64,000 nt of DNA from Mobula hypostoma (taxonomy: Eukaryota). Under the pieces are notes generated by a model. That model ran no database searches, had not been told where the DNA came from, and saw only the letters and a program-made list of their open reading frames with translations. Location of the stretch: NCBI RefSeq assembly GCF_963921235.1, contig NC_086108.1, forward strand, positions 90,584,001-90,648,000. Direction: 5' to 3'. Made by a program: the position numbers and the translations under genes. Shown here piece by piece: positions 1,125-63,733 of the stretch. Every line of letters begins with the position of its first letter. Within the stretch, counting starts at the first letter, position 1.

Positions 1125-1301
1125 CCTATTCTTCTATCCTTCCCGTTATCCTCTTTCCCCTCCTCTCACCTTTTTATTCTGGCATCTTCCATCTTTCTTT
1201 CCAGTCCTGAAGAAGGGTCTCGGCCTGAAACATCAGCTGCTTATTCATTTCCATAGATGCCGCCCGACCTGCAGAGTTCCTCCAGCATTTTGTGTGTGTT
1301 G
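1125..1301 (+). mobile_element. Penelope 3' terminal repeat fragment with hammerhead motif
   Basis: Pyrimidine tract, then CAGTCCTGAAGAAGGGTCTCGGCCTGAAAC, then the CATAGATGC...TCCTCCAGCATTTTGTGTG tail. Confidence 0.75.
1202..1239 (+). ncRNA. Minimal type-I hammerhead ribozyme motif (helix I decayed)
   Basis: CAGUC CUGAAGA A GGG UCUCGG CCU GAAA CA UC AGCUG. Confidence 0.55.
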
Positions 1302-3343
1302 ATTCAGAAATCCATTGCTTATGTGATGGAAATTATTCAGAAAGAGTTGCATTAGGAAATCTCCTCGCTTTTGAAACATTTAATTGCATCCTGATGAATG
1401 TTTTTTTTACCTCTTTCACATGTGTGCATTTCATGAAATACTAAATAATTGTACACCTTTATTATTCTATAATTGCACATTAGAATCTGCACAACACTTT
1501 AGTCAGGGGATAACTTATTACCACATTAAAAAAATAGGTCAGTGGTAACGTCACTTGATGATCATCAACCACAAGGGCTTAAAACCTACCCGTCATGCAT
1601 TCCTTAACAGCAGCTGATATTTTACTAGGACTACCTAGGTGCAGCACTAGTGTAATTACCTAGCTGTCAGTGTGATAAGTGGGATTAATGGCGGGCTGAT
1701 GCACTTTAGTCTGCAGAGTGGTTAGAGAATTGCAAGATGGGATTATTATTATAGGTACTTGTCTGTACCAAGGTAATCACAGCAGTGGAAAAATGGCTGC
1801 AATTTACTATAGCATTGCCCTGCCTCATTAACATTTGACATTTTCAACAGCTGTTTATTTGTGAACCTGTTCAATAATAAAGGTAAAACAAATTGGTAAA
1901 GACTTTTACTGAAGTGCTGCTATTGTCTGTATCTTATTACAATGCTACAAAACACAAGTTTAACCAAGACCGGTTACATATTTTGAGTATTGAAACATTC
2001 AATGAATATTTTAGTACATAAAAGAGGCTGTTTTCTTGACTCCATGATAACATAGTGCCATATACTGGTGCAGATTGAGATCATGCCCTTGAATCTAAGC
2101 TATTATCAGCTATATCATCATGGGAAAGATCCGCAAGGTATTTCTTAATATACTGCCCAGGATATAAGCGTTGAAGCACAGGTCCGTGATGTTGTGATTC
2201 CTGTGCTTTCGATCTGTTTAATGGTGCTGCTGCTGTTTTCTTTTACAAATCTCTTCTCATGTCTTCATTTGTGGGAGAGTCTGAAATTCAGCACTCTGTC
2301 ACTCAGAAATCCTGGTGGAAATCTGTGAGAAACGGAAAGACGTGGGCCTGCTACCTCTGAGAACTATAATTGATCAGAGTGGAATTTAAGTGCAAGCTAC
2401 GTGAACGTATTAAGTACAAAGGCAGGAAGATTACAGCGATAGAGCTGGATGAAGAGAAATTGGAGAGCCACATGGTAGAGGATCAATTCGTTCAAATAGC
2501 TGAGTTCTGATAGTTAAGTCTGAGGAAATTTGTATATTGGCCTTTTGAATCCATGAGAATGAGTTTTCAATGCAGCCTTTTGAGGACATTGGATTTACTG
2601 AAGTTACAGAATTTACACATGTTGGGAGGAGTGATAGGCACTTAATAAAAGGGTTGGACAGCTATTTTTCTTCTTTTGGTGGCTGGTTTTAAACTTCTGA
2701 GAAACTATTTGGAATGTACTTATTATGGGAATAGATTATGAAAACAGATAAGACAGAAAATTTCAGTGCTGAATTTTCTGGCCTTTAGTAGCCCAAGCCC
2801 ATTTTGCATGTAGCTTCAATTTTAAAGTAAATTTATCATTAAAGGACGTATGCAATATATACTGAGGTGAGTGAAGCTGGTCAAGCAAGAGCTCGATGGC
2901 TGCAGGCAACAGGTGCGGAGTCCCTTCAGTGCTGAGGCAAGTGATACTGGTCCAGGAGTCCGATGGCTACTCCCGAACCTGGCAATGTAGCAGCTAGGGG
3001 TGAAGTTGACAGAGAACTCGGGGATTCCAAGCCCACATTCATTTACATTTCTTTCAAATCCCCAATTTTGAAGGTGAGTGTTCCTTGTTCTATTCCATTC
3101 CTGTGATATCACAGAAAGAGTTAAGATTATTGGAAGGGTGTTATCATCTGTCCTGCTAATTACACTTCTCTCACTCTTATTTAAATATGAAGATAAGAAA
3201 TTGGATTCAAAATATCAGAAAAGGGCCTGGTTTTCTCCTTTTAAGATCTGATTATTTCATCATAATTGAAATTAATTTTTTAAAGATTTCAGCAGACATT
3301 TTTGCCCAGTTTTTGCACAACAGGCTTTCCTCACATCTTAGTT

Positions 3344-3515
3344 ACTTATGCTGTTTTGTAACTCCAAAACATAAGTCTAGTTGAAATAAAACAGGGGAGT
3401 CCCAAATAATGTAAATAACTAGTTTTTTTACTATAAGCGATGTGTGCAAGTATCATTTGGTAGTGTTATGAGATATGCAATTCACTTATTTTTACATATA
3501 ACCCATCATGAATTC
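3344..3515 (-). mobile_element. Gypsy LTR fragment, split by the Tc1 insertion (appears to resume at about 5027-5055)
   Basis: Diverged copy of the LTR at about 7972-8219 (TTATG...TAACTCCAAA...ATGCAATTCAC...TTTTTACAT). Confidence 0.55.
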
Positions 3516-3518
3516 TGT

Positions 3519-5025
3519 GAAGTACCTACAAAAAGTATTCACCCTCTTGGAAGTTGTCATGTTTTATTGTTTTGTAACATTGAATCACATGGCTCTTTTG
3601 ACGCTGATTACCAGAAAACGCTGATTACGCGTCAAAGCAAAAACAAATTGGTCTATAGTTATTACAATTATTAAACACAAAATAATTGATTTTATAACTA
3701 CTCACCCCCTGCAAGTCAGTATTTAGTAGATGAACCTTTGGCAGCAACTACAACCTTGAGTCTGTGTGGATAGGTCTCTATCAGCTTTGCACATTTGAAC
3801 ACTACAACTTTCCCCATTCTTCTTTACAAAACTGCTCAAGTTCTGTCAGATTGCATGGGGATCGTAAGTGAAGAGCCCTTTTCAAATCCATCCACAAATT
3901 ATCAATTGGATTGAGACCAGGACATTAACTTTGTTGTTTTTTAAGCCATTCCTGTGCAGTTTTGGCTTTATGCTTGGGGTCAATGTCTTTCTGGAAAACA
4001 AATCTTCTCCCAAGTTGCATTTCTCTAGCAGACAGCACCTGGTTTTCCTCCAGGATTTTCCTGTATTTTGCTGCATTCATTTTACCCTCTACCTTCACAA
4101 ACCCTCCAGGGCCTGCTGCAGTGAAGCATCCCCACAGCATGATGCAGCCACCACCATGCTTTGCGATAGGGACGGAGCATCTCAATTTTGGTTTCATCAG
4201 ACCATAGAACTTCTTCCAGCTGACCGCAGAGTCTCCCAAACACGAGCTGAGATTTCATGTGAGTTCTTTTCAACAGTGGCTTTCTCTTTGCCACTTAGCA
4301 AAGCACCCAGGCAACAGTTGTTTGTGCAATCTCTCCCATCTCAGCCACTGAAGCTTTTAACTCCTCCAGAGTAGTCATAGGTCTCTTGGTGTCCTCCCTC
4401 ACTCATCCTCTTCTTGCACGGTCACTCAGTTTTTGAGGACAGCCTGCTCCAGGCAGATTTACGGCTGTGCCATATTCTTTCCATTTTTTGATGATTGACA
4501 TAACTGTACACAAAGGATATTCAGTGACTTGGAAATTTTCTTGTATCCATCTCCTGATTTGTGCTTTTCAATATCCTTTTCACAGAGTTGCTTGGAGTGT
4601 TCTTTTGTTTTCATGGTGTAGTTTTTTTCCAGGATACTGACTAACCAGCAGTTGCACCTTCCAGATACAGGTGTATTTTTACTACAGTCAATTGAAACAC
4701 CTTGTCTGCACACAGGTCTCCAAAAACAGATCTCCATTTAACTAATTATGTGACTTCTGAAACCAGTTGGCTGCACCAGCAATGATTCGGTGTGTCATAT
4801 TAAAGGGGGTGAATACTTATGCAATCAATTATTTTGTGTTTTATATTTGTAATTAATTTAGATCACTTTGTAGAGATCTGTTTTCACTTTGACACAAAGG
4901 AGTCTTTTTCTGTTGATCAGTGTCAAAAAAGCCAAATTACATCCACTGTGATTCAATGTTGTAAATCAATAAAACATGAAATCTTCCGCGGGGGTGGGGG
5001 GGATGAATTCTTTTTATAGGCACAG
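3519..5025 (-). mobile_element. Tc1-family DNA transposon, decayed transposase
   Basis: Terminal inverted repeats (AAAAAGTATTCACCC...CATGTTTTATTG / CAATAAAACATG...TTTTTATAGGCACAG). Frameshifted peptides MKTKEHSKQL...GDGYKKISKSLNI, VLWSDETKIE and KHGGGCIMLWGCF...FVFQKDIDPKHKAK. Confidence 0.9.
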
Positions 5026-5057
5026 TATATACAATATTCTGTATAATACAGCTGCTA

Positions 5058-5477: not shown

Positions 5478-5480
5478 CGA

Positions 5481-5600
5481 ACTTGGCCCAAATCATCGAT
5501 TCTTTACTCTTTTCCATAGATGCTGCCTGGCCTGCTGAGCTCCTCCAGTATTTTGTGTGTGTTGCTTGGATTTCCAGCATCTGTAGTTTTTGTCTTGTCT
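5481..5600 (+). mobile_element. Penelope terminal repeat tail (hammerhead core lost)
   Basis: TTCCATAGATGCTGCCTGGCCTGCTGAGCTCCTCCAGTATTTTGTGTGTGTTGCTTGGATTTCCAGCATCTG. Confidence 0.75.
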
Positions 5601-5989
5601 GTTACAGTACATATGCAGTTTTTTGTCTCCCACTTTAAGTTCATGCAATGTACTCAATGAACTCAGAGGAAATTCTGCTTCTTTATACTCACAAAGACTG
5701 AATGCTTCCATCTTTCCTGAAGCTCCTTGAACTCTCTTCCAGGTTATAACCAAGCTAAATTTTGCAAGTACTGCCTGATTAACATATCAGAAGCTTTCTC
5801 AGATATTTGCCTGCAAAAACTTTTGCAGTTGGACCACTGCTTTCGTCTTTTTTTTTTACAATTCCTCTGAGCAGCATGGTCTTTCCAATATGCTTTCCAA
5901 CCAGAGGCACAGAGGTTGGCACCAGCACCTGTTTACCCCTTGTTGAGCAGTAGTTCATCGTATACAGCTCGGAGACAATTGTGGCATTA

Positions 5990-8219
5990 TACATTACATT
6001 TCTTAATTTGCTTTCAGTTGATTCTGTTGCAGGAGATGTGACGAATAAAAAATGGTGGAAGGATCTCCTATCGAGTTGTAGTTGTCCCTGTCACTCACAT
6101 CCCCACAGTACTGACCCTCCTGTTTTTACCACATATAGTCCGAATGTGGCTTGTTAGTTGTATTTCACTGTTACAGCTTTCATTCCCACAGGAGTTATCT
6201 TTTCTTAGCTGAATATCAGCAGGCTTTAGTTCAGTATCTTTGAAATGCCGTGCAAGCTCATTTTGTAGAATGGCTGAAAAGGCTGAGTAAGTGTCCAGTT
6301 CTATTTTAATTAGTTTGCCATTCACTTCAGGTGTAAGCCATATTGCTTGACCATTATTAGTTTACACAGTGTAAATCTTGAGGCCACACAGTCCTGTGAC
6401 ACTCTCATCATCATCAGTTTTTTTTTTATCAAGAGCATGCAGATTAGTGCTCTTTTAGAAACTGTAACTTGGCTTTTTACCTTTTTCTCTTCCCTGTACA
6501 GTCCATTTATTTTTGCCTACCCAACATGCTCTTGGTATACCCTGTACATATATATAGCTTGGCTGCCTAAGACCTTTGCACAGTACTGTGGTAATTTTAT
6601 GTACTGTACTGTACTGCTGCTGCAAACAAAACTCATTTCATGACATGTGTGAGTGATGATAAACCAGCTTCTAATCTAGGCCTCTGTTGTGGACTGAGTG
6701 TGGGAAGGGGGTAGGGAGAGGGAAAATCATGGTAGGATAAAGGGAAAGGAAGACAGCAGAAACTGGGAAGCACCAAGAGAATCATTCTCTAAAGATCAAT
6801 AAACGAATTGTTTGGAATCAAGTGACCTTGCCTCTGTCTCAGGGCTGGGTGTGTCTGCAACCTCGCCACCCACCACCCCTGGGACTCCTCTGCTATCTGT
6901 CCACACCCCTGCCACACTGCTCCACCCTCACCATTCCCAACATCCTTTGCTCCCACCAGATGTACAAACTTGCTCTCTGCTGCACATTGACAAATACTGT
7001 GAAAAAGTCATAGGCACCTTAGTTATATATACTGTATGTGCCTAAGACTGTTGCACAGTACTGTGTATCCTACTTTGTTATATTTTCTGCAAGTTTCACC
7101 TTTAAGCCTGCATTGGTCTGGTGAATGTGAGCTGCTGCAACAATGGTAACACTATTTTTTCGCCCAGGCTGGTTTCTGTTTAGATGTTATAGTTTTTTTC
7201 ACACTCACTTTTATTCCTAACTGCAATTCACTTGTGTATCTGTCTGCTGTTTCCACTGATACAGCTATTTCAACTGCTCTTTTCAATGTAAGTTGTGCTT
7301 CAGTTAGAGTCACCTTTCTTGTAAGACTCCACAAACTAAATGATCTCTCAGTACATCATTAAGCCCATTACTGAACTGCCAATGCTCAGACAACTTCTTC
7401 AATTCAGCCACGTATGCTGAAATGGACTCCCCTTCCTTTTGATTCCACTTACAAAACCTAAAGCATCTTGCAATTAACAATAGTTTTGGTTCCAAATGTT
7501 CCTGCATTATTTTCACAGTACTGTATCAGCTAAGCACATTTCAGCTGGTTTGGTAGGAGGAGCAATGCAAACTACCCATGCAAACTACCCATGCAAACTA
7601 CCAATGCACTCAGCAAAAGTGATACTTGTTTCTCATTGGCTATTTCATTTGCTTCAAGATGCTGCTTAATTTTCTCAGTTTACAATACTGCGTTGTTTGT
7701 AATCAACACATCAAACTTTCTGATGTAGCCAGCCATTTCTGCTTTTTTAAAAAAGTATTATTATTATCACATGGCACTCACTGTTTATTAACCTGTGAAT
7801 TTGTCCATTTTCTGTTTTTAAGAAAAAACTCAGTTGTCTCTTTCGTAAAGAAAATGTGCTGTTTTTTTTTTACTTGGCTGTTTCTTGCTGTACTTTTTTT
7901 TACTGGAATGTCTCGCTATGCTTCAGCGGGTAGGTAGTTGTCCCAGATATGTTTAAAACTTTCTCATCACCACTGTTATGTTTTTTAACTCCAAACATAA
8001 AATTAATTGAAACAAAAACAAAGAAATCTGGAATAACATATCTAACTTTGTTTTTTACTTTAAGTGATGTGTGTATTTAACATGTGGTAGCATAATGATG
8101 TATGCAATTCACGTATTTTTACATGTAACCTAAAATGAATTGTTTAAATTAACAATAATGCTTAATCAAACAATATATTTACAATTTTACACAAATACTA
8201 CTGAAATATTAAATACACA
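5990..8219 (-). mobile_element. Decayed Gypsy (Mag-like) LTR retrotransposon: 5' LTR, PBS, gag, protease
   Basis: LTR at about 7972-8219 followed on the minus strand by a TGGTGATGAG PBS-like site. Gag peptides QEHLEPKLLLIARCFRF...ESISAYVAELKKLSEH and LTEAQLTLKRAVEIAVS. Protease-like VNGKLIKIELDTYSA. Confidence 0.85.
6540..7062 (+). mobile_element. Composite repeat bounded by mini Tc1-like MITE modules, inserted in Gypsy gag
   Basis: TGCCTAAGAC(C/T)(T/G)TTGCACAGTACTG near both ends. The internal part is homologous to 8415-8560 in reverse orientation. Confidence 0.6.
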
Positions 8220-8293: not shown

Positions 8294-8328
8294 CAGTACT
8301 GTGCAAAAGTCTTAGGCACATGTGTATA

Positions 8329-8381
<53 letters not shown>

Positions 8382-8412
8382 CTAGGGTGGCCAAGACTCT
8401 TGCACGGTACTG
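8294..8412. mobile_element. Tiny Tc1-type MITE enclosing a (TA)n microsatellite
   Basis: TA|CAGTACTGTGCAAAAGTCTTAGGCAC ... GTGGCCAAGACTCTTGCACGGTACTG|TA. Confidence 0.8.
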
Positions 8413-12109: not shown

Positions 12110-13605
12110 CATGGGTGGCAAGGGTACTATTCAGAAGAGATGCTGAGGCTTTATAAGGCATTGGTCAGACTGCACTTAAGGGTATTGTGAGCATTTTTGG
12201 GTCCCTTATAGAAACATAGAAAATAGGTGCAGGAGTAGGCCATTCGGCCCTTCGAGCCTGCACCGCCATTCAGTATGATTATGGCTGATCATCCAACTCA
12301 GAACCCTGTACCAGCCTTCCCTCCATACCCCCTGATCCCTTTAGCCACAAGGGCCATTATGTACTGGCATTGAAAAGAGTCCGGAGGAGGTTCATGAGAA
12401 TTATCCCAGGAATTAAAGAGTTAGTATATTAGATTATGAGGACACTCAGTCCTTGTTTATTGTCATTTAGAAATGCATGCATGCATTAAGAAATGATATA
12501 ATGTTCCTCCGGAGTGATATCACAAAAAAAACAAGATAAACCAAAGACTAACACTGACAAGACCACATATTTATAACATATAGTTACAGCAGTGCAAAGC
12601 AATACCATAATTTGATAAAAAGCAGACTGTGGGAATGGTAAAAAAAAAATTCTCAAAGTTCCGATTGACACCCGATAGTCCCCGATAGCCCCCGATAGCA
12701 GGTGGCAGAAGGAGAAACTCTCTCTGCCATAAACCTCCAGGCACCGACAACTGTCGATGCGCTGGAAGCACCCGACCACAGCTGACTCTGTGTCCGTCCA
12801 AAAACTTCGAGCCTCCGACCAGCCCTTTGACACCAAGCACCGAGCACCATCTCTGCTGAGTGCTTCGACCCTGTCCCGGCTGCCGAGCAACAAGCAAAGC
12901 CAAGGATTCGGGGCCTTCCCCTTCGGAGATTCTGGATCTCACAGTAACAGCAGCAGCAAAAAAGGCATTTCAGCAGTCCCTCCAGATGTTCCTCAGTTCT
13001 CTCACGTCTGTCTCCATCAAATCAGGATTGTGCACGGCACCCTACTTGACAGATAACAGATATCATTCACTGGAGTGGCCGCGCAAGCTGTGTCGCGCCT
13101 CCATCTTCTCCTCCTCCTATGAGGAGCATTTGACAGCTCTGAGCCTGTACTCACTGCAGTTGAGAAAAATGAGGTGGTGGGGATGGAAATTAATTAAAAC
13201 CTATTGAATATTGAAAGGCTGAGATAGAGTGGGCATGGAGAGGATGTTTCCTACTCCAGGAGTTCCCAATCTTTTTAAGACCATGGAGTGTTACCAGGTT
13301 GGGAGAGTTTAGGACCAGAAGGCACAGCCTCAGAATAGAAGGATGCCCCCTTAGAGCAGATATGGGGAAGAATTTCTTTAGTCAGAGAGTGGTGACTGTG
13401 TGAAATACAATTCCACTGTCAACTGTGGAAATCAAGTCATTGGGTATATTTAAAGTGGAGGTTGATATGTTCTTGATTAATTGGGGTGTCAAATGGGAGA
13501 AGGCAGGAGAATGGGATTGGGAGGGATAATAAATCAGCTATGATGGAATGGCAGAGCAAACTCGATGGACCAAATAGCCTAATTCTGTTCCTATGTCATA
13601 AGGTC
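12110..13605 (+). mobile_element. CR1 LINE 3' portion with two nested insertions
   Basis: MLRLYKALVRLHL...YEEHLTALSLYSL...GHSLRIEG...NFFSQRVV and the CR1 3' UTR. Interrupted at about 12209-12357 (inverted CR1 tail) and 12430-13117. Confidence 0.75.
12430..13117 (-). mobile_element. Non-autonomous retroposon (AAGATGG head, CTAAT-type tail), copy 1
   Basis: Reverse-complement homologue of 28562-29220 over its full length. Confidence 0.75.
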
Positions 13606-18022: not shown

Positions 18023-19270
18023 GTAAGACCATAAGCCATAGGAGCAGAATTAGGCCATTCAGCCCATCTGATCCACTCTGCCAATTCATCATGGCTGATC
18101 CCAGATCCCATTCAACCCCATATACCATCCCTCTCACCTTATACCTTGATACCCTGACCAATCAGGAATCTATCAACTTCTACTTTAAACATACCCATAG
18201 ACTTGGCCTCCACCATTGTCTGTGGTATAGCTTTCCACAAATTCACCACTCTTTGGCTAAAAAAAAAATCCTCCTTCCTTCTGATCTAAAAGGTCACCCC
18301 TCTATTTTAAGGCTGTGCCCTCTAGTTTTGGATACCCTACCTGAAGGACCATTCTCTTCACATTCACTCTGTCTGGTCCTTTCAACTTCTGGTAGGTTTG
18401 AATGAGATCCTCCCACATTCTTCTAAATCCCAGTGAGTACAGGCCCAAAGCTGCCAAATGCTCCTCATATGTTAACCCCTTCATTCCTGGAATCATTCTC
18501 GTGAGCCTCCTTTGGACCCTCTCCAATGACAACACATCCTTTCTGAGATAAGGGGGCCAAAACTGTTCACAATACTCTAAGTGTGGCCTGATTATAAAGC
18601 CCTGGCATTACCTCCTTGTTTTTATATCCTACTCCCATTTAAATAAATGGCAACAGTGCATTTACCTTCTTTACCACAGACTCAACCTGTAAATTAACCT
18701 TCAGGGAGTCTTGCAAGACGATTCCTAAGTCCCTCTGCACCTCTGATGTTTGAACCATCTCCCCATTTAGATAATAGTCTGCACTTTTGTTCCTGTTACC
18801 AAGATGCATTGTCGTACATTTCCTAACACAGTATTCCATTTGCCACTTTTTTGCCCGTTCTCCCAATTTGCCTATGTCGAGCTCCAATCGCATTGTTTCC
18901 TCAGCACTACCTACCACTCCACCTATCTTCAAATCACCTGCAAACTTTGCCACAAAGCCATCAATTTCACTTTCTAAATTATTGATAAACAATGTAAAAA
19001 GCAGCAGTTCCAGTGCTTACCCCTGAGGAACATCACTAGCCACTGGGAGCCAACCAGAAAAGGCCCCTTTTATTCTCACTCGCTGCCTCCTGCCTGTCCT
19101 CCATTCCTCTATCCATGCCAGTGTCTTTCCTGTAATGCCATCGGGTTTCATCTTGTTAAGCAGCCTCATGTGAGGCACTTTATCAAATGCCTTCTGAAAA
19201 TCTAAGTAACTGACATCCTCTGCCTCTCCTTTGTCCACCCTGCTTATTATTTCCTCAAAGAATCCTAACA
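18023..19270 (-). mobile_element. CR1 LINE, 5'-truncated (RT domain and 3' end)
   Basis: YLDFQKAFDKVPH, SDVPQG, FINNLE...AKFAGDLK, LERVQRRLTRMIPG; 3' (TCTTATGG)-like tail. Confidence 0.9.
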
Positions 19271-19347
19271 GTTTTTTTTTCTAGTATTAAATAGGTGGGT
19301 TGCTGAGCAGTGTGTCTCGTTGGGCCGGAAGGCTGTTCTGGGATGTA

Positions 19348-20353
19348 TAATGGCATGCAAAAGTTTGGGCACCCCGGTCAAAATTTCTGTTATCGTGAAT
19401 AGCTAAGCCAGTAAAAGATGAACTGATTTCCAAAAGGCATAAAGTTAAAGATGACACATTTCTTTAATATTTTAAGCAAGAAAAATTCTTTATTTCCATC
19501 TTTTACAGTGTCAAAATAACAAAAAAGGAAAAGGGCCAGAAGCAACAGGACTTGTTACCAAAATGCATTGGGCTTGTTTAGATGTTCCTTTGAAACTTTT
19601 GAATAGAACTTTTTGGCTGCAATGAGCAAAGGTATGTTTAGAGAAAAAAAGGTGCAGAATTTCATGAAAAGAACACCTCTCCAACTGTTATGCACAGGGG
19701 TGGATCGATCATGCTTTGGGCTTGTATTGCAGCAGGGAACATTTACTGGTAGAGGGAAGAATGAATTCAATTGAATACCAGCAAATTCTGGAAGCAGACA
19801 TCACACCGTCTGTAAAAAAGCCAAAGATGAAAAGAGGATGGCTTCTACAACAGGATAATGAACCTAAACATACCTCAAAATCCACAATGGACTACCTCAA
19901 GAGGTGCAAGCTGAAGGTTTTGCCATGGCCCTCACAGTCCCCTGACCTAAACATCATTGAGAATCTGTGGATAGACCTCAAAAGAGCAGTGCATGCAAGA
20001 CAGCCCAAGAATCTCACAGAACTAGAAGCCTTTGCAAGGAAGAATGGGTGAAATCCCCCAAACAAGAATTGAAAAACTCTTAGCTGGCTACAAAAAGCGT
20101 TTATAAGCTGTGATACTTGCCAACGGGGGTGTTACTAAGTACTGCCATGCAGGGTGCCCAAACTTTTGCTTTGGGCCCTTTTCCTTTTTTGTTATTTTGA
20201 AACTGTAAAAGATGGAAATAAAAAAGTTTTTTTGCTTAAAATATAAAAGAAATGTGTCATCTTTAACTTTATGCCTTTTGGAAATCAGTTAATCTTTTAC
20301 TGGCTTAGCTATTCACAGTAACAGAAATTTTGACCGGGGTGCTTATGCCACTG
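19348..20353 (+). mobile_element. Tc1 transposon with internal deletion (same family as 59481-60959)
   Basis: TGGCATGCAAAAGTTTGGGCACCCC TIR, TA flanks, peptide QQDNEPKHTSK...WPSQSPDLNIIENLW. Confidence 0.9.
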
Positions 20354-28255: not shown

Positions 28256-28354
28256 ATGTTCCACCTCTTTTGCTCTGTTTATCACTGATGGTGCAAGCAA
28301 CTTCACTATCTCCTTTTTCTTCCTTCTCCCTCTGGTTCCCCTCCCCTCTTGTAT

Positions 28355-29963: not shown

Positions 29964-30111
29964 TATCTACTGTTAAGGTAATTTAATTAAAGGAACTTAC
30001 TCGGCCTTACCTCACTTGGAGTGAAGCTTGTCCTCAGCCTCCGCTCGCCGAAGCCTCTCGAGGCAAAGCCTCCCTACTCTTGTCTCCCACTACTCCGTCG
30101 CCTGCTCAGTT

Positions 30112-31059: not shown

Positions 31060-31195
31060 TTTCCCATTTATGACGAAGAGTCTTCTGCCTGAAATGTGAA
31101 TTGCCTTTCTCTTTCCACAGATGCTGCCTGACCCGTTGAGTGCTTTCCTCAATTTCTGTTTAGATTTCAGATTTCAAGCATCTGCAGTTTTTAGG
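31060..31195 (+). mobile_element. Old Penelope terminal repeat remnant
   Basis: ATGACGAAGAGTCTTCTGCCTGAAATG...CACAGATGCTGCCTGACC...AGCATCTGCAG. Confidence 0.6.
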
Positions 31196-37401: not shown

Positions 37402-37618
37402 ACAGGTTGAACAGTGGCCATGCCATCATCTGCTATGCTCAACACAAGTTCAGTGAAGATATCTTTAAGATAAATTCCCCCTCCTAAAGTGCTGATGAGT
37501 CACAAAGTCAATTTATAGATATTGTTTCAATTATACTCAAGAAGAATTATACGTCGAACATTTACAATATTTCATGTTGGGGCAGCCAGTTTTATCTTGG
37601 CCAGCAAAGAAATCTTTT

Positions 37619-37716
37619 GCAACACACATAAGTTGTAGGAGGAACTCAGCAGGTCAGGCAGCATCTGTGGAAAAGAATAAATAGTTAACATTTTGGGCTG
37701 AGACCCTACGTCAGGA
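37619..37716 (-). mobile_element. Penelope terminal repeat remnant
   Basis: Minus strand CCTGACGTAGGGTCTCAGCCCAAAATG... followed by the family tail. Confidence 0.7.
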
Positions 37717-37895
37717 TAAAAAATCTTTTGTCATATTCCTGGGATTTGCATATTCTTCCTTGTACTTTGAAAATATTTTGAGAAGTTAATTGTTTTTTCT
37801 CAAATCTCCAATGGATGCTTCAGTTTGCTGTATTCATTTATAAAAATACATCATATAATCAATCACATATTATAGATTTGTTAAAATATAGCATA

Positions 37896-38275: not shown

Positions 38276-38353
38276 TACAGAAGTGTACAGAAAACCTTAG
38301 CGGTTTCCCCCCAGGGCTAAAATGGTTGCCACAAGAGAACACAGGTTTAAGGT

Positions 38354-38667
38354 AACATACATCAAAGTTGCTGGTGAACACAGCAGGCCAAGCAGCATCT
38401 ATAGGAAGAGGCGCAGTTGACGTTTCAGGCCGAGACCCTTCCTGACGAAGGGTCTCGGCCTGAAACGTCGACTGCGCCTCTTCCTATAGATGCTGCTTGG
38501 CCTGCTGCGTTCACCAGCAACTTTGATGTATGTTGCTTGAACGAAGGGTCTCGGCCTGAAACGTCGACTGCGCCTCTTCCTATAGATGCTGCTTGGCCTG
38601 CTGCGTTCACCAGCAACTTTGATGTATGTTGCTTGAATTTCCAGCATCTGCAGAATTCCTGTTGTTT
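38354..38667. mobile_element. Non-autonomous Penelope-derived insertion (inverted plus two tandem units) with 13-bp TSD
   Basis: TSD ACAGGTTTAAGGT at 38341-38353 and 38668-38680. 88-bp inverted arms. Tandem units 96 bp apart. Confidence 0.88.
38442..38474 (+). ncRNA. Hammerhead ribozyme core (5' helix I strand removed by the inversion junction)
   Basis: CUGACGA A GGG UCUCGG CCU GAAA CG UC^GACUG. Confidence 0.65.
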
Positions 38668-39959
38668 ACAGGTTTAAGGTGCTGGGGAGTAGGTATAGAG
38701 GAGATGTCAGGGGTACATTTTTTTACTCAGAGAGTGGTGAGTGCGTGGAATGGGCTGCTGGCAACGATGGTGGAGGTGGATATGATAGGGTCTTTTAAGA
38801 GACATTTGGATAGGTACATGGAGCTTAGAAAAATAGAGGGCTATAGGTAAGCCTAGTAATTTTTAAGGTAGGAACATGTTCGGCACAACTTTGTGGGCTT
38901 GAGGGCCTGTATTGTGCTGTAGTTTTTCTATGTTTCTGTGTTTCTATATACCCAATAAAGTGGCTGCTGAATGTAAAATAGTGATGCTGCAACATTTCAT
39001 GTACTTAAAAAAAACAAAGGCTTTCAACATGACTAAAGGGCATTTCAAATGGGAGGCATTGATTAACCACATTAACCTCTGGATACAACCAGTTACCTGT
39101 CTGATGATGACAAAGAAATATGTGTTGAAGAGGCTGCTGTAACAATCAATTGCCTAGCACCTATAGTTCTCAGTGGGACAATTACCAGACCATTACTCTG
39201 GTCCCAAATGTCGAGGAACCAACAGCCCCAGGAGATAAGCTGGGTAGAGACAGGCTTTTCTGGCAGATTTTGATTGATGGCCCAGTGCACAGCTCAAATG
39301 CAGCCCCAGAGACTAGCTTTTTTTGGCTTTCTTAAATTCTGGTCTCTCATTCTCTTCCTCTAGTACAAACTAACAAAAAATATTGATTCTATTTCATTAA
39401 AATCTGAGGAAAGCAAATGACCACATTACTTCAATCACAACTGATTTTTGAATCTGTGGTTGGACCTTGGCTTGAGCACAGAGCACACAATAATAATGCC
39501 ACTCAAGAATAATTTGAAATGTTTATACCCATTCCAGCTTCAGTAATTTCCAAAAAATGGCAAAGAGCATTTATATTGTCCACATCTAAACTATATCCCA
39601 GCTTTTCCTCCATGGTGTTTGTTCCGTTTTGAAATCAATATCCTCTTTTTCAGTGCAAAACCTGTTAAAATCCATCTTTGCTTTCCCCATGCTATTTAGA
39701 AGTGATCAATTTTATAGACCCTTTATAAATTGAGATTTTATTCCTCTTTTGTGTTACTTCTGCATATTGCAACCTGCAGGATTTTTAAAAATTTACAGTA
39801 AATACGAAAACAATTTTATTTTGTTCAAGGTGATTTTCTAGTTTCTGGAATAAACAGTATGAAATCACGAAATCCTGTTCTGAAGTTGGAGCTCCATGAT
39901 AATCCAGTGGTATCCCAGGATGATTCCATGGAAAGCTGGGACGGGTAAAGGGAAACGGT

Positions 39960-40262: not shown

Positions 40263-40279
40263 GACAACTTGCTCTGAAC

Positions 40280-41840
40280 ATCATACACAGATTGCTGGAA
40301 GAACTCAGCAGGTCAGGCAGCATCTATGGTAATGAATAACTAGTCAATAGTTCAAGCTGAGACCCTTCATCAGCACCGGGAAAATAAGGGGGGAAATGCC
40401 AGAATGAAAAGGCGAGGGGGAGGGGAAGGAGGACAAGTTAGAAGATGATGGGTAAGCCAGGTGAATGGGAAAGGTATAAGGCTGGAGAAGAAGGAATCTG
40501 ATAGGAGAAGAGAGTAGACCTTGGGAGAAAAATGGAGAAAGAGGGGTCTTAGGGGGAGGTGATACGCAGGTAGGGAGAAGAGGTAAGTGACCAGTGTGTG
40601 GAATAGAAGAAGAGGGAAGGGGAGAACAAAAGAAAAGAAAATTACCAGAAAGAAAAATCAATTTTCATGCCATCAGGCTGGAGGCTACCTAGATAGAATA
40701 TGAGATGTTGACCTTCCACCCTGAGAGTGACCTCACCATTACAGAAAAGGAGGACATGGGCTGACATGTTGGAAAGGGAATAGGAATTAAAGTATTTGGC
40801 TACTGGGAAATTCTATTTTTGGCAGATAGAGTGGAGATGTTAGATAAAGTGGTCCCCCAACTTACGTTGGGTCTCACTGATGTAGAGGAGGACGTATCAG
40901 CAGCACCAGATACATAGACAACCCCAACAGATTCACAAGTGAAGCATTGGCTCACCTGGAACGACTGTTAGGGGCCTGAATGAAGTTGACGAAGGAGGTA
41001 AATGGGCAGGTGCAGCATTTCTCTCGCTGGCAGGGATTTGTGCCAGGAGGAAGATTAGTGGGGAGGGAAAATGGATGATGAATCGTGGAGGGAGCCAACC
41101 CTGTGGAAAGCAGAGAATGGGTGGGGGACAGTAAAGGTGCATTTGGCAGTAGGATCCCCATTGAACATGGTAAGGGTAGCAGAGAATGATGTGTTGGATG
41201 TAGAGGCTCATGGGGTGGTAGGTGAGGACAAGAGGAACTCTATCCTGTTAAGGTGGCAGGAAGAAGGGGTGTGCGCAGATGTCCAGGAAATGGAGATGTG
41301 AGTGAGGGCAGCAGTAATGGTGGAGGAAGGTTAACTCCATTCTTTGAAGAAAAAGGATATCTCTGATGTCCTGGAAAGGAAAGCCTTGTCTTGGGAACAG
41401 ATGTGGCAGAGAAGAAAGAACTGAGAAAAGGGAATAATATTTTTACAGGAGACAGGGTGGGAGGACAGGACGTCAAGATAGCCGTGGGAATTAGTAGGTT
41501 TATAAAAGATGTCAGTAGAAATATTGTCTCCAGAGATGGAGACAGGGGGATTGAGAAAGGGAAGAGAGGTGTCAGAAATGGACAAAATGAATTTAAGGGC
41601 AGGGTAGAAGGTAAAGTCAAGGTTGATGAAATTGATGAGCTCAGTATGAACATGTGAAGCAGCACCAATGCAGTTGTCAGTGTAGTGCAGAAAGAATTGG
41701 GAAGCATTACCAGGGAAGGCTTGGAACATGGACTGTTTCATATTGCCATCAAAGAAGCAGGCATAGCTGGGGCCCTTGCTAGTGTGCATGGTTACCCCTT
41801 GAGTTTGGAGGAAGTGGGAGGAGCCAAAGGAGAAATTTGT
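40280..41840 (-). mobile_element. Penelope-like retroelement: decayed RT, GIY-YIG endonuclease and hammerhead-bearing terminal repeat
   Basis: NFSFGSSHFLQTQGVTM...GPSYAC...FFLHYTDNC...LPFLN...FYKPTNSHGYL...HPVSCKNIIPFSQF. FTCESVGVVY/LYISETQRKLGDHF at about 40845-40960. Degenerate hammerhead at 40341-40378. Confidence 0.9.
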
Positions 41841-44439: not shown

Positions 44440-45630
44440 GATCTTGAATAGCTGGGGCCGCAACACCAGTCCCTAATATATTTCACTGGTCATGTACAAC
44501 CAATATGAAAATCTGTTTATTCCCACTTTGAAAAAAAGGAAGCTGCAATCTATGTCAGTGTATTAACCCAATTCTGTGCTGTAAATGCATTGGCCAACCT
44601 CTATCAAAAATATTCTGAAAATCCAAATGCACTACATTCAGTAGTTCACTCTTATCTGTTATAGTGACTGCCTTCTCAGTGGACTTCAGTGCATTAATCA
44701 AATCATCTGTGCTGACCTTCCTCAATAGTATTAATCTTTTCAAAGTGCTTTATTTTACTCTCTGCCTTAAAGGTTCCAGCATTTCCCTACCACCATAGTT
44801 TAACTAATAAATCACTATTTCCTATTTTCTCCCTGTCCATTTGCTACTCTTCAATTCACAGGAATAAGTCCACAATCTACAGAACCCTGTTAAATGATAA
44901 CCAACACATCTGTTGTCTTAAGAACAACCCTTTCAAAATTCTGGGATGTAGAGCATCTGGTCCTTGTGATTTATCACATTTTATGCTCACAAATGTTTCT
45001 AGTACTATTTCTTGGCTAATACTTACCTCCTTGTGTTTCTCATTCTTCATAGATCTTAGTCCTGTAATATATTTGGTCCTTTTTATGTGTCTTCCTCCAT
45101 GAAGACAGATACCAATAAGTTGTTTAACTCTTCTGCTATTTCCTGTTTCCCATAATAACTTCTCTTGGGAGGAAGGGCACATTTCCCCATGTTCAGTTTT
45201 TGTTTCTTTTCATATAGCTCTTACTTTTTTATGTTTTCCCATTCTAATCTCATAAAATATCTTTCTTTATCAATTTCTTAATTTTCCTTTGCTGATTTCT
45301 AAAATCTTTCCAATCCTTAACTCTACTGCTGAATCTAACAAATTTCTAAACCTCATCCTTTGGCTTGTTACTGTGTTTAATTTCTGTTGTCAGCCACAGA
45401 TAAAGCACTTCCCTTTTGGGTTTGTGTCTTAAAGGTCTTTTTTTGGCATTATTTATTTAAATCATATCTGCTTCTTGTCCATTATTGTACTTTTCAATGT
45501 ATCCACCAAATCAACAACTCTCCAGTGATACTTTCGTAGTTTTCTTTGCTTAGATTTAAGACCAGAATTTTAAATTCAATGTCAAATTCTATCATATAAT
45601 AGTTACTCTTTCCCAACATCCCCTTGAAAA
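44440..45630 (-). mobile_element. Old CR1 ORF2 fragments
   Basis: VVHLDFQNIFD; DKSQGPDALHPRILK. Confidence 0.7.
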
Positions 45631-50446: not shown

Positions 50447-50618
50447 AAATGCAAAACACCGTGGATGCTGGAAACCAGAAATCAGAACAGAAATTGGTGG
50501 AAACACTCAGAAGGTCAGGCATCATCTGTGGAGAGAGAAATTCAGTGAATCTTTCAGTTCAGTGACTTTCATCAGATGAAAGGTCTATTGAAAGTCATTG
50601 ACCTGAAACATTGACTCT
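50447..50618. mobile_element. Old head-to-head Penelope terminal repeat remnants
   Basis: GGATGCTGGAAACCAG...AGGTCAGGCATCATCTGTGG (minus) meets GATGAAAGGTC...CCTGAAACATTGACT (plus). Confidence 0.55.
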
Positions 50619-54409: not shown

Positions 54410-54848
54410 TATAGAGTGATACAACTTGGGAACAGGCTCTTTGACACATCGAGGCCATGGTGACCATCAACCAGCTATTCATTCCTACCCTGCACTAATT
54501 GCATTTTATTGTTCCACATTACTATCCAATGTCTCCAGATTTCAGCGTTTACCAAAAACAACAAGAAATTTATAGTGGCCAATTAATTTTCTGTCTCGGC
54601 CTGAAACGTCGACTGTACCTCTTCCTAGAGATGCTGCCTGGCCTGCTGCATTCACCAGCAACTTTGATGTGTGTTGCTAATCTTCTGACTGATGACTTTG
54701 GAATGTCGGAGGACACTGGAGCACCTGGAGGAACCTCATGTGGTCACAGGAATGTGAAATCTTCACACTGATAGTGCCCAAACTCAGGATTGGATCTGGA
54801 TTTCTAATCTGTGAGGCAGCAATTCTAATAGTAGTTTTCTACAGCCTT
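54410..54848 (-). mobile_element. V-SINE interrupted by a Penelope repeat piece (about 54591-54678, plus strand)
   Basis: V-domain antisense GGAGGACACTGGAGCACCTGGAGGAACC. The insert reads GTCTCGGCCTGAAACGTCGACTG...AACTTTGATGTGTGTTGC. Confidence 0.65.
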
Positions 54849-55360: not shown

Positions 55361-55558
55361 CCCACAAAATGCTGGAGGATCTCAGCAGGCCGGACAGCAT
55401 CTACGGAAAAGAATAAACGGTTGATGTTTCGGGCCGAGACCCTTCATCAGGACTGGAAAAAAAGATGAGAAGTTAGAGCAAGAAGGTGGAGGGAGGGGAG
55501 GAAGAAGTACATGGTGGTAGGTGATAGGTGAAACTGGGAGAGGGGGAGGAGGAGTGTA
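55361..55558 (-). mobile_element. Penelope 3' terminal repeat fragment
   Basis: Family tail plus hammerhead and a purine-rich upstream tract; abuts a V-SINE piece at about 55200-55358. Confidence 0.8.
55418..55455 (-). ncRNA. Minimal type-I hammerhead ribozyme motif (core and helix II intact, helix I weakened)
   Basis: CAGUC CUGAUGA A GGG UCUCGG CCC GAAA CA UC AACCG. Confidence 0.65.
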
Positions 55559-55559
55559 A

Positions 55560-56495: not shown

Positions 56496-56712
56496 AAAAC
56501 AAACGAGAACATTTGCAGATGTTGGAAATCCAAGCAACACACACAGAATGCTGGAGAAACTCAGCAGGCCAGGCAGCATCTATGGAAAAGAGTACAGTCG
56601 ACATTTTGGGCCAAAATTTCGACTGTACTCTTTTCCATAGATGCTGCCTGTCCTGCTGAGTTCCTCCAGCATTTTTTGGGTGTAGCCTTACTTCCAACAA
56701 ATCTGTTGTGTT
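56496..56712. mobile_element. Head-to-head Penelope terminal repeats (fold-back)
   Basis: About 70-bp imperfect inverted arms centred near 56610. Confidence 0.8.
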
Positions 56713-56744
56713 TTCTTCTCTGAAAACAGACACGGAATAGAATA

Positions 56745-59086: not shown

Positions 59087-59372
59087 AAGCAACACACATA
59101 GAAGTTGCTGGTGAACGCAGCAGGCCAGGCAGCATCTCTAGGAAGAGGTGCAGTCGATGTTTCAGGCCGAGACCCTTCGTCAGGACTAATTGAAGGAAGA
59201 GTGAGTAAGGGATTTGAAAGTTGGAGGGGGAGGGGGAGATCCAAAATGATAGGAGAAGACAGGAGGGGGAGGGATGGAGCCAAGAGCTGGACAGGTGATA
59301 GGCAAAAGGGATATGAGAGGATCATGGGACAGGAGGTCTGGAAAGAAAGACAAGGTGGGGGGGACCCAGAGG
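59087..59372 (-). mobile_element. Penelope 3' terminal repeat fragment inserted in CR1
   Basis: Family tail, hammerhead and purine-rich tract. Confidence 0.82.
59151..59188 (-). ncRNA. Minimal type-I hammerhead ribozyme motif (best-preserved fold)
   Basis: UAGUC CUGACGA A GGG UCUCGG CCU GAAA CA UC^GACUG; helix I is UAGUC/GACUG. Confidence 0.72.
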
Positions 59373-59436
59373 ATGTTAAACTTGGGTTGTCTGCTCTGGA
59401 GTATTGGAGGCTGAGGGGAGATCTGATAGAAGTTTA

Positions 59437-61900
59437 AATGAATTGAATTGACTTTATTTCTTACATCCTTCCTTCACATACAGTGGCATGCAAAAGTTTG
59501 GGCACCACCAGTCAAAATTTTTGTTCTGTGAATAGTTAAATGAGTAGAAGTTGAACTGATCTCCAAAAGTCATGGAGTTAAAGATGAAACATTCTTTTCA
59601 ACACTTTAAGCAAGACTAGTGTATTATTTTTGTTTTGTATAATTTTAAATGAAAAAAAGGGAAGGAGCACCATGCAAAAGTTTGGGCAACCCAAAAGATT
59701 TGAGCTCTCAGATAACTTTTACTAAGGTCTCAGACCTCAATTAGCTTGGTAGGGCTATGGCTTGTTCATAGTCATTGTTAGGAAAGGCCAGGTGATGGAA
59801 ATTTCAAAGCTTTATAAATACCCTGACTCCTCAAACCTTGTCCCAACAATCAGCGGCCATGGGCTCCTCTAAGCAGCTGCTTGCAGTCTGAAAATTAAAA
59901 TAAATGATGCCCACAAAGCAGGAAAGGCTATAAGAAGATAGCAAAGCGTTTTCAGGTAGTCGTTTCCTCAGTTCGTAATGTAATTAAGAAATGGCAGTTA
60001 ACAGGAACGGTGGAGATCAAGTTGAGGTCTGGACGACCAAGAAAATTTTCTAAGAGAACTGCTCATAGGATTGCTAGAAAGGCAAATCAAACCCCCGTTT
60101 GACTGCAAAAGGCCTCCAGGAAGATTTAGTAGACTCTGAGACTGATGCATTTTGGAAACAAGTCCTGTGGACTGATGAAGTTAAAATAGAACTTTTTGGC
60201 CACAATGAGCAAAGGTATGTTTGGAGAAAAAAGGGTGCAGAATTTCATGAAAAGAACACTTCTCCAACTGTTAAGCATGAGGGTGGATCGATCATGCTTT
60301 GAGCTTGAGTTACAGCCAGAGGCATGGGGAATATTGCACTGGTAGAGGGAAGAATGAATACAATTAAATACCAGCAAATTCTGGAAGCAAACATCACACT
60401 ATCTGTAAAAAAGCTGGAGATGAAAAGAGGGTGGCTGCTACAACAGGATAATGATCGTAAACACACCTCAAAATCCACAATGGACAATCTCAAGAGGTGC
60501 AAGCTGAAGGTTTTGCCATGGCTCTCACAGTCCCCCGACCTAAACATCATGGAAAATCTGTGGATAGACCTCAAAAGAGCAGGCAATGCAAGACAGCCCA
60601 AGAATCTCACAGAACTAGAAGCCTTTTCCAAGGAAGAATGGGCGAAAATCCCCCAAACAAGAATTGAAAAACTCTTAGCTGGCTACAAAAAGTGTTTGCA
60701 AGCTGTGATACTTGCCAAAGGGGGTGTTACTAGGTACTGACCATGCAGGGTGCTCAAATTTTTGCTTCAGGCCCTTTTCCTTTTTTGTTATTTTGAAACT
60801 GTAAAAGATGGAAATAAAAAAGTAGTCTTGTTTAAAATATTAAAGAAATGTGTCATCTTTAACTTTATGGCTTTTGGAAATCAGGTCATCTTTTACTCGC
60901 TTAGCTATTCACAGTAACAGAAATTTTGACCAGGGTGCCCAAACTTTTGCATGCCACTGTACATGAGGAGTAAAAATCTTTACGTAATGTCTCCATCTAA
61001 ATGTGCAATGTGCAAATATAGTAATTTATAATAATTTATAATAAATAGAACAGTCAATGTAACATAAAATACACTCAAATCAGCGTGAGTTAATTAGTCT
61101 AATGGCCTGGTGGAAGAAGCTGTCCCAGAGCCTGTTGGTACTGGCTTTTATGCTGTGGTACTGTTTCCCGGATGGTAGCAGCTGGAATAGATTATGGTTG
61201 GGGTGACTGGGGTCCTCAATGATCCTATGGACCCTTTTTACACCTCTGTCCTTGTATATGTCCTGAATCATGGGAAGTTCACAACTACTGGCTGTCTGCA
61301 CCACTCTCTACAGAGTCCTGTGGTTAAGGGAGGTACAGTTTCCATACCAGGCAGTGATGCAGCCAGACAGGATGTTCCCAATTGTGCCCCAGTAGAAAGT
61401 TCTTATGGTTTGGGGGACATACCAAACTTTCTCAACCGTCTGAGGTGAAAGAGGCGCTGTTGGGCCTTTTTCACCACACAGCTGGTGTGTACAGATGACG
61501 TGAGGTCCTCGGTGATGTGGATGCCGAGGAACTTAAAGCTGTTTACCCTCTCAACCCGGATCCATTGATGTCAATAGGGGTTAACCTGTCTCCATTCCTC
61601 CTGTAATCCACAACCAGCTCCTTTGTTTTTGCGACATTGAGGGAGAGGTTGTTTTCTTGACACCACTGTGTCAGAGAGATGACTTCTTCCCTATAGACCA
61701 TCTTGTTATTGTTTGAGATAAGGCCAATTAATGTATTGTTGTCAGCAAATTTAATTAGCAGATTAGAGCTGTGGGTGGCGACATAGTGATGGGTATACAG
61801 GGAGTAAAAGAGGGGACTTAGTACACAGCCCTGCGGGGCTCCTGTATTGAGAGTCAGAGGGGTTGGAGGTGAGGGAGCCCACTCTTACCAGCTGCCAGCA
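59437..61900 (-). mobile_element. Rex1/Babar-type LINE (RT to 3' end), with the tail split by Tc1
   Basis: GAPQGCVLSPLFYSLYT, IKFADNNT, LNVAKTKELVVDYR, LFQLLPSGKQY...DSFFHQAIRLIN; (TTGAA)n tail at about 59437. Confidence 0.88.
59481..60959 (+). mobile_element. Tc1 (DD34E) transposon with both TIRs; transposase disrupted
   Basis: TA|CAGTGGCATGCAAAAGTTTGGGCAC ... GTGCCCAAACTTTTGCATGCCACTG|TA. MGSSKQL start at 59859, WTDEVK, and QQDND...DLNIME with 34 residues between D and E. Internal deletion and a stop at 60300-60302. Confidence 0.95.
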
Positions 61901-62280: not shown

Positions 62281-62369
62281 TAAAATATGTTGTGACATGT
62301 AATAAATTCTACAGCTTTTTTCAAATTTGTATGGTTTATACAACAGTGCAATTGGTTGTCTATCTATGA

Positions 62370-62690
62370 TGACAGGAAACCTGTAAGCAGGATAGTCTAG
62401 TAAAGGGGAAAAGCCATTGTATCTCGCTGTTGATCTCATCCACCCAGCCACTGGACAGGCATGTCTCTGTCTTACTGGGGTATGAGGTCTGCCGGCTGGC
62501 TTCATCCGGTTTAGCCTGCCTTTTGAAGCGGTGTACCAGGGTGTCACTGCCATCACATGCAGACAGCTACTTGGAGCCACAGCTGAGAGCTGAGCATCCG
62601 GTGGGGACCAAAGATGAGTGAGCTGCCCCAGAATGGACATAGAAAATCCATTCACCAGAGATGCTAGCCCTCCCTGGATACTCTAACCCC
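62370..62690 (-). mobile_element. Non-autonomous RTE-type derivative
   Basis: GC-rich structured head (CAGCTCTCAGCTGTGGCTCC...GGCTAAACCGG) joined to a CAGGTTTCCTGTCATC end; resembles RTE-type termini from recall. Confidence 0.45.
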
Positions 62691-63614
62691 CTATGCAATA
62701 TTAATGAAATAAGAAATGAGTATTTTTTTTTAACTTGAGTGTCTATTCCCTTGAAAACTCCAGTTGTAAATGGGAACATTCTTATGGCTCACAAGTTGAT
62801 TATATTTTCTTTGCAAAATCCTGCAATTCCACTGGAGGGTTAAGTGACCCAGGATCAGCGTCGTCTCCCAAGCCAACATCCCATCTTCAAATTGTCCTCA
62901 GCTGATTCCAGTAGATGAACTGCACTGTCTGCATGCTGGACATCAGACATTCAAAGCGGTTCAGAAAGTCACTCTACTCTGAGTTTGATTGTGGCAAAGG
63001 ATTGGCTTACCAGGTGGCTAGAGAAAATCATTCAAAGATCTTCTGAAAGAATCCTTGGATAAAATGTGAGATTCTCACCAGCTTCTGCCAATCTATTCCT
63101 TGTGGCCACTCAAAACGAAAGAGCATCTATAGTGTACTTGAAACCCCTGGCACTCTTTGTCAAGTAAAAATGCACACCATCTTCCTTACCTGCCATCCAC
63201 TCACCCCATAAAAAATGTTAATTATGGATGGATACCTTTCTGACCAGAGCAATCCCCTGTGCAGTTTGCTCTGTCTAGAGTTTGCTGCACAGCTATATCA
63301 AAACACAGAGAAGGAAAATGAGTCAAGAGAGTAAATTGCTCAGTTTACTGTCTCTACTCACTTCCCTTTGTTTTTTTTGGTGGCACTTTCCTAAACCAAG
63401 GGGTGATATGCAGTTCACCTCTTTTAGATGTGGGAGTAAACTGGCTCATGCAGCAGACACTTACGCAGTCTTGAAGAGAATGTACTAATCCTTGTGAACT
63501 GCACGTGTGCTCGGGTTCAATCCCAGTTTCCTGGATCTGTGCCACTGTGAAGCCTCTGGTAGAATTGCCAGACTCAAAGGCAGCTTCTGCCTCACTGTTA
63601 TCATACTCTTGGAT

Positions 63615-63733
63615 TGAATGCTGGAGGAACTCAGCAGGCCAGGCAGCATCTATGGAAAAGAGTACAGTCAACATTTCAGGCTGAGACCCTTCATCAGGAC
63701 TGATTTCTGGCATCTGCAGATTTTCTCTTGTTT
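63615..63733 (-). mobile_element. Short Penelope-derived insertion (minus unit plus inverted tail tip)
   Basis: Family tail and hammerhead on the minus strand, then plus-strand GATTTCTGGCATCTGCAGATTTTCTCTTGTTT. Confidence 0.78.
63665..63702 (-). ncRNA. Minimal type-I hammerhead ribozyme motif
   Basis: CAGUC CUGAUGA A GGG UCUCAG CCU GAAA UG UU GACUG; helix I intact. Confidence 0.65.

Follow-up and report, generated by a model that had tools for sequence, protein, structure and literature searches.

A high-copy repeat of Mobula hypostoma carrying a minimal hammerhead ribozyme is the pseudo-LTR of a Neptune-like Penelope element

Minimal type I hammerhead ribozymes in the pseudo-long terminal repeats (pLTRs) of Penelope-like elements (PLEs) are a published class, and the occurrence of such a motif is in itself no surprise. 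The Neptune clade of PLEs is defined, in the accessible text of its description, by a CX2-5CxxC motif between the reverse transcriptase (RT) and the endonuclease (EN) (PMC8557442). For PAc, a Poseidon element of the green anole, the accessible text traces the 3' tail to two internal RT start sites and describes, in vitro, a protein that nicks the two target strands, a template that is mainly uncut RNA and a ribozyme assisted by protein (PMC11167929). Animal non-LTR retrozymes are reported, in the available part of a preprint, from the single cartilaginous fish that was sampled (bioRxiv 10.64898/2026.07.22.740005). Here, a dispersed repeat is described from a 64,000-nt stretch of the Mobula hypostoma genome, referred to below as the window (NCBI RefSeq assembly GCF_963921235.1, contig NC_086108.1, positions 90,584,001 to 90,648,000). 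The repeat segments are the pLTR ends of a Neptune-like Penelope element. An initial annotation of the window, made from the sequence alone, had already placed the repeat in the known class of hammerhead-bearing Penelope terminal repeats; the link to an RT/GIY-YIG frame and a full-length copy elsewhere in the genome bear this out. A literature search that reached few subscription journals and did not include Repbase returned no published account of this family, nor of a PLE start site at the hammerhead.

With good confidence, the hammerhead is considered to be conserved between subfamilies and to decay in inserted copies, while the element RNA likely starts at the first helix of the ribozyme and is likely copied uncut. 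This interpretation builds on observed features, namely the RT/GIY-YIG link, hammerheads at both ends of the element, discrete classes of copy ends, head-to-head pairs, target-site duplications and an accumulation of 5' ends, from which we infer the rest.

The carrier can be recognized on the minus strand of the window at 40273-41837, where the repeat comes after a pyrimidine-rich untranslated region (UTR) and a decayed RT-GIY-YIG frame. The repeat was tied to the open reading frame (ORF) of a PLE by tblastn instead of Pfam, which assigned 0 families to the decayed PLE frames of the window (5/5). The full-length copy (L136) consists of a pLTR, an open frame of 1043 codons, a 3' UTR and a second pLTR, with a hammerhead in both pLTRs (5648-5756 and 2141-2243). 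Its protein, P0001, has Pfam matches to GIY-YIG and RVT_1, both under the Pfam cut-off. Residues 430-1043 have 784 homologues at E<=1e-20 among 7987 scored. Among the matches listed, RVT_1 is present in nearly all of these homologues, and the closest named ones are from bamboo shark (64-67%). The linker that joins RT to EN carries CX4CX2C, which points to the Neptune clade. The frame of a further locus, L026, had no Pfam family, and a sequence search of PDB gave nothing below E=0.27. An ATG is located after the pyrimidine tract of the pLTR, about 48 nt past C3 of the hammerhead (5710 in L136; the 63655 region of the window). Read by eye, this ATG appears in frame with the long ORF in older subfamilies, and a 2-nt gain in the youngest subfamily turns it into an upstream ORF of 16 codons.

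The CUGANGA and GAAA core with a UH cleavage triplet is found in all four subfamily consensuses, and the unpaired base after A9 and a palindromic helix III stub are present in the consensus. The consensus given by the initial annotation is correct in its core, helix I, helix II, ACGU palindrome and CpG decay. Its helix II exists, but was drawn as 3 bp with a 6-nt loop; 4 bp including a U-G pair, with a 4-nt loop, fit better. Subfamilies were obtained by clustering the 148 copies that were long enough among 226 copies sampled genome-wide (see below); 14 copies in two loose clusters were left out, and the oldest family was pulled out by profile. A TTAACT pattern tried for the oldest family gave 308 matches, among those listed mostly doubly decayed young copies, and was dropped. 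The four main subfamily consensuses differ at 0/11 core, 0/8 helix I and 1/8 helix II positions, as against 11/15 positions of the next linker, 8/8 upstream and 15/47 downstream. Pair 2.1-1.1 is U-A in 14 of 27 oldest-family copies, and 76 younger-group copies have C-G there; similarly, pair 10.4-11.4 is U-A in 22 old copies and U-G in 108 younger ones. Core and pairing are thus conserved across subfamilies, as anticipated initially, with no core change and with changes that keep the pairs.

Inserted copies behave differently from the consensuses. In old subfamilies, core positions are changed in 78/688 cases (11.3%) versus 246/2610 (9.4%) downstream (p=0.15), and in the young subfamily in 3/329 versus 17/1085 (p=0.59). 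The helices of old inserted copies decay faster than the flank, and G5 is changed in 10 of 67 old copies. The simplest reading is that selection acts on source elements and is followed by neutral decay of inserted copies. Among the matches listed, nearly every recurrence of a G-to-C change at the helix I end is linked to one downstream haplotype, which suggests a minor source lineage among the young copies.

The family is very abundant. Across 3.48 Gb, 48,862 sites match a 33-letter pattern of the core exactly, compared with 0 in the control. A profile search of 102 evenly placed 10-kb stretches, 1.02 Mb drawn from large contigs only, recovered 226 copies (2.2 +/- 0.18 per 10 kb; reversed control 0), which scales to about 770,000 copies with a standard error near 64,000. 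The very high copy number and the density of about one locus per 5 kb that had been proposed from the window hold genome-wide. Element sequence covers 49,456 of 1,020,000 sampled bases (about 5%). A descriptor requiring the core, a helix I of at least 4 bp and a helix II of at least 3 bp has 27 matches in the sample (control 0). The palindrome is retained in 21 of them, nearly all of the youngest type, which corresponds to about 70,000 whole motifs genome-wide or about 9% of copies (21 motifs versus 226 copies). A full core is present in 47 of the 128 sampled copies that span the motif. Copies, whole motifs and the covered share of sampled DNA are well above published counts.

Copy ends were mapped for 103 young copies, with positions counted from C3; 42 copies came from the even sample and the window, the rest from two patterns downstream of the ribozyme. 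The 3' ends form two classes that lie 34 nt apart, 45 at +85..102 and 53 at +123..148, with none between and 5 elsewhere. An inverted partner is found at the 5' end of 49 of the 103 copies. Of 15 head-to-head pairs that could be mapped on both sides, 14 combine a short with a long arm, one arm being long by selection in five of the 15 pairs. Of 49 non-inverted young copies, 18 are bounded by target-site duplications of at least 7 bp (7-14 bp; shuffled mean 1.0); within the window, 1 of 13 loci has a clear one (38341-38680, 13 bp). The 5' ends accumulate in the interval -10..+9, with 31 of 86 copies at risk versus 18/317 in five other 20-nt intervals (p=7e-12), -30..-11 being left out of this pooled control. 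The same is seen for non-inverted copies alone (10/47 versus 8/190) and for the even sample alone (12/36 versus 7/139). The mode is -4 (7 copies), the A that opens helix I, and a heptamer with its A at -4 is present in 4/4 natural copies checked; we take this heptamer to be initiator-like. Beyond -32 the ends drop to background, and 61 of the 103 copies begin at -32 or later. Cleavage as the process that sets the 5' ends was rejected, with 1/103 ends within 2 nt of the cut site.

On balance, we lean towards the view that the majority of young copies arose by run-off from the initial 100-135 nt of the element RNA. They would place the RNA start at the A of helix I, so that the initiator would be part of the ribozyme, which on cutting would take away the first 32 nt together with the cap, and each two-armed insertion would represent two cDNAs primed on opposite target strands from different start sites. 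In the proposed mechanism, a promoter in the pLTR would initiate the RNA near -4 and more weakly at positions as far as -32, and the element protein would nick both target strands. Synthesis of cDNA would begin internally, at two positions located about 96 and 130 nt past C3. From the 5' pLTR it would run off the RNA 5' end after 100-135 nt and leave stumps, from the 3' pLTR it would give longer copies truncated at random, and two run-off cDNAs joined head to head would yield palindromic pairs. The template RNA would be uncut. The ribozyme would probably cut rarely or late, helped by the element protein or a tandem partner, and would be of use to the element, loss of the first 32 nt with the cap being one example; the dispersed copies would be bystanders. 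If this is true, the approximately 770,000 copies read out the Penelope insertion mechanism at base resolution. Their ends would narrow down the role that the ribozyme plays in Penelope elements, with uncut templates, an RNA start likely at the ribozyme and different start sites for the two arms.

In the window itself, a profile built from five window copies detected 16 repeat segments at 13 loci (29-107 bits), while five reversed or shuffled controls reached 8.6 bits at most. This agrees with the roughly 13 loci sharing one repeat in the initial annotation. The six copies it had singled out lie where it placed them, each coordinate marking the low end of a 38-nt motif on the plus strand (1202, 38442) or the minus strand (40341, 55418, 59151, 63665). 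As whole ribozymes they do not hold up, since each has damage to the core, helix I or palindrome. Copy 40341 has GAAC in place of GAAA and no helix I, helix I of copy 38442 is down to 2 bp, and copies 1202 and 55418 have lost the first helix I pair. Copies 59151 and 63665 keep the core and helices and have lost the palindrome through CpG decay. Overall, a full core is present in 6/16 segments, the strict descriptor is passed by 2/16, of which 0/2 have the palindrome, and 0/16 combine core, helix I and palindrome. None of the 12 matches at E<=1 in an Rfam scan of the window was to a hammerhead, and all were dismissed as hairpin artefacts; a (TA)n and (TG)n microsatellite at 8316-8384 is the source of spurious microRNA matches. 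The segments and the associated element parts are as follows:

898..1021, minus strand: old decayed copy.
1193..1314, plus strand: older pLTR copy with whole core; helix I 3' strand and palindrome altered.
5479..5601, plus strand: stump beginning in loop II, with tail.
31071..31192, plus strand: oldest-type decayed copy.
37609..37717, minus strand: older stump beginning just before the core; core broken.
38341..38680, mixed strands: compound young insertion, one event, with a 13-bp target-site duplication at 38341 and 38668.
38354-38443, minus strand: part 1 of this insertion, an inverted stump.
38440-38541, plus strand: part 2, a stump beginning 2 nt before the core, head to head with part 1.
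38541-38667, plus strand: part 3, a tandem stump with a 34-nt tail.
40273..40650, minus strand: pyrimidine-rich 3' UTR and pLTR of the element at 40651..41837; hammerhead 40341-40378 dead (GAAC, no helix I).
40651..41837, minus strand: decayed 3' third of a Penelope-like ORF (RT thumb, linker, GIY-YIG); tblastn of P0001 gives 48% over aa 639-949 and 41% over aa 834-1040, blastn to the L136 element 71% over 1217 nt.
50454..50616: oldest-type copy (50454-50575, minus strand) and short inverted remnant (50573-50616, plus strand, weak match); core letters present, no helix I.
54593..54681, plus strand: young stump beginning within helix II; no CUGANGA.
55361..55464, minus strand: older pLTR copy with whole core; first helix I pair and palindrome lost.
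56503..56702, both strands: head-to-head stump pair joined in loop II; no CUGANGA.
59088..59375, minus strand: young-subfamily 3' UTR and pLTR, 93% to L136 over 286 nt; hammerhead 59151-59188 complete in core and helices but without its palindrome (CG to CA); descriptor match.
63617..63704, minus strand: copy of the pLTR; hammerhead 63665-63702 complete in core and helices but without its palindrome (CG to TG); descriptor match.

Non-LTR retrozymes are recognized by a run of two or more tandem units, each holding a whole hammerhead. Such units are absent from the window, where the tandem at 38440-38667 holds no whole motif, and present at locus L140 (G000:C1:46047200-46048400, minus strand). 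L140 is a trimer of an internally deleted unit of 435-441 nt (pLTR, tail, ORF start, UTR) and holds two whole hammerheads 441 nt apart; loci L138 and L139 show similar spacings of 420 and 456 nt. Judged by its sequence, L140 is a retrozyme-like derivative and a candidate natural dimer substrate. In the predicted fold of the 441-nt tandem, the hammerhead helices have a probability of <=0.003 because an upstream hairpin takes the core. The predicted folding agrees with low spontaneous ribozyme activity.

Several observations weigh against parts of this interpretation. The clade call rests on one motif, which is shared with Nematis. The frame of L136 has a compensated frameshift across the catalytic YIDD motif, which is out of frame in that copy; therefore no active copy is demonstrated. 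The hammerhead search beyond the window with covariation analysis, as suggested initially, found descriptor matches as well as pair-keeping changes, but each of the latter (2.1-1.1, 10.4-11.4) is a single event. Genome-wide, G5 is changed in 203 versus 36,060 unchanged copies (0.56%); for a control G at the helix I end, the numbers are 422 versus 39,871 (1.05%). This twofold deficit at G5 (p=4e-14) could reflect selection on inserted copies. In the element body, G in a TGA context changes about threefold less than in TGC/TGT (6/1065 versus 43/2484, a calibration in coding sequence), and context can therefore account for the deficit. Concerning the 5' ends, the interval -30..-11 is also raised (12/55), so there is no single sharp start, and many of the 103 mapped copies came via pattern searches, 25 loci via the tail pattern. 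Finally, a hairpin is predicted at about -17..+11 in the young subfamily, which could stall the RT or prime fold-back and give the same accumulation of 5' ends.

This hairpin, which joins the upstream pyrimidine run to the start of helix II, is the main rival for the 5' ends, as it would attribute them to RT stalling or fold-back priming rather than to an RNA 5' end. It forms in predicted folds of young and subfamily D copies, and the accumulation is strongest in inverted copies (21/36). However, the accumulation is also present in the non-inverted copies (10/47), the mode at -4 falls in the hairpin loop and not at its 3' base, and the ends reach background beyond -32. We consider this explanation rather unlikely. 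An alternative concerning the ribozyme itself is that the 3' UTR and ribozyme lie in a retained intron, with the donor at the stop codon and the acceptor either within helix I or 20 nt past the cleavage site, and that splicing turns the ribozyme off. Drosophila Penelope has such an intron according to the accessible text of PMC2377424 and PMC4209133, and the latter and PMC8557442, as far as available, provide the precedent. Older subfamilies have a GT-AA donor-like site at the ORF end, and pyrimidine tracts precede both AG sites, but the GT is absent from the youngest subfamily and the second AG mostly absent from subfamily D. Probing the genome for the spliced junction of each acceptor gave 0 copies in both cases, and there was no GT-AG joint among 15 listed of 393 and 15 listed of 39 joints in runs whose contigs are guessed to be RNA; all 20 runs found consist of contigs of guessed or unknown kind. 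The intron is without support and unlikely here; as PLEs retain introns and the joints listed are part of the total, these negatives leave it unproven and do not refute it.

The initial annotation had further proposed that the family could cut intronic or long non-coding RNA transcripts, which would make the dispersed copies host-RNA-cutting ribozymes shaped by host selection. The extrapolated 70,000 whole motifs (21 in 1.02 Mb) and 48,862 exact core matches, the rate of change at G5 of half that of the control G and the two whole motifs 441 nt apart in L140 speak for it, as do contigs with the element from sequencing runs that are only guessed to be RNA. Yet no window segment is whole (0/16) and 21 whole motifs face 226 copies, which makes host-RNA cutting by dispersed copies unlikely. 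The core is unprotected in old copies (78/688 versus 246/2610; G5 10/67), and the G5 deficit matches sequence context. Single minimal motifs were uncleaved and dimers cleaved little in vitro in the available part of PMC4209133, and 1/9 Xenopus dimers was cut in that of bioRxiv 10.64898/2026.07.22.740005. The motif needs a partner, yet the natural tandem is predicted to fold with hammerhead helices at <=0.003, and 49/103 young copies carry at their 5' end an inverted arm expected to base-pair with the motif. The claim is accordingly not supported, and we regard it as very unlikely, although rare tandems might be an exception. A purely accidental origin, in which the motif would at no time have been a ribozyme, is hardly credible. 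The lack of an Rfam hammerhead among the 12 matches and a different minimum free energy fold of the monomer would be in its favor, but 11/11 core positions, both helices, the extra base after A9 and the palindrome agree with the minimal form as published, base pairs are preserved where the sequence changes, and reversed controls gave 0. A ribozyme kept by source elements and lost in their inserted copies remains the preferred interpretation.

Besides the Penelope repeat, the window contains two copies of a Tc1/mariner-type DNA transposon (19343-20342 and 59479-60964) that are 90-93% alike and have inverted ends of about 200 nt; a DDE_3 match is located in the second copy at 60309-60737. Further remnants are found at 3352-4254 and 7979-8158. 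A long decayed non-LTR retrotransposon, presumably CR1-like, occupies the minus strand of 25456-29966 with endonuclease-like and RT frames (RVT_1 at 26422-27216), and shorter pieces lie at 18302-19016 and 44877-45209. A GC-rich repeat forms an inverted pair (12486-13207 and 28555-29114, 86-87% alike), the second copy of which is within the non-LTR element. At 30164-30340, an 89-nt unit is present as a tandem pair (91% alike).

The closest described motifs are the minimal hammerheads of metazoan PLE pLTRs, including those of fish Xena, Poseidon and Neptune (Cervera and De la Pena 2014, PMC4209133). As far as the accessible text of that report extends, the motif described here resembles them in being type I and reduced to the core, with a helix I of 4-5 bp, an unpaired base after A9, a palindromic 15.2-16.2 and presence in both pLTRs. 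Solo motifs of truncated copies prevail in both cases, and pairs on opposite strands occur. The family described here differs in its short helix II of 4 bp and in the G-U instead of G-C pair at 10.1-11.1 of the youngest subfamily. The 48,862 exact matches of one pattern compare with about 9,000 motifs in Xenopus and about 4,000 in coelacanth, numbers obtained by different search methods.

Similarly, the available account of PAc (Frangieh et al. 2024, PMC11167929) shares the two 3' end classes that define a tail of 30-40 nt, copies made from uncut RNA and a hammerhead at the pLTR. In contrast to PAc, the EN linker here carries the Neptune-type CX4CX2C, and the first Met of the long ORF is about 160 nt past the core, while that of PAc is in stem II. 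The accessible part of the PAc account does not place the RNA start at helix I. With the EN-containing PLEs of the Neptune clade (Craig et al. 2021, PMC8557442, as accessible), the element shares the order of RT and C-terminal GIY-YIG, the CX2-5CxxC linker, partial tandems, inverted 5' copies and a tail, but its copy number far exceeds the 37,000 called exceptional for Naiads in that text. The animal non-LTR retrozymes (Li, Clavereau and Pollet, bioRxiv 10.64898/2026.07.22.740005) are, in the available part of the preprint, PLE-derived tandem units with one hammerhead per unit, and L140 is such a trimer. The copies of the window, unlike these, are solo or inverted stumps with target-site duplications and not tandem arrays of whole ribozymes.

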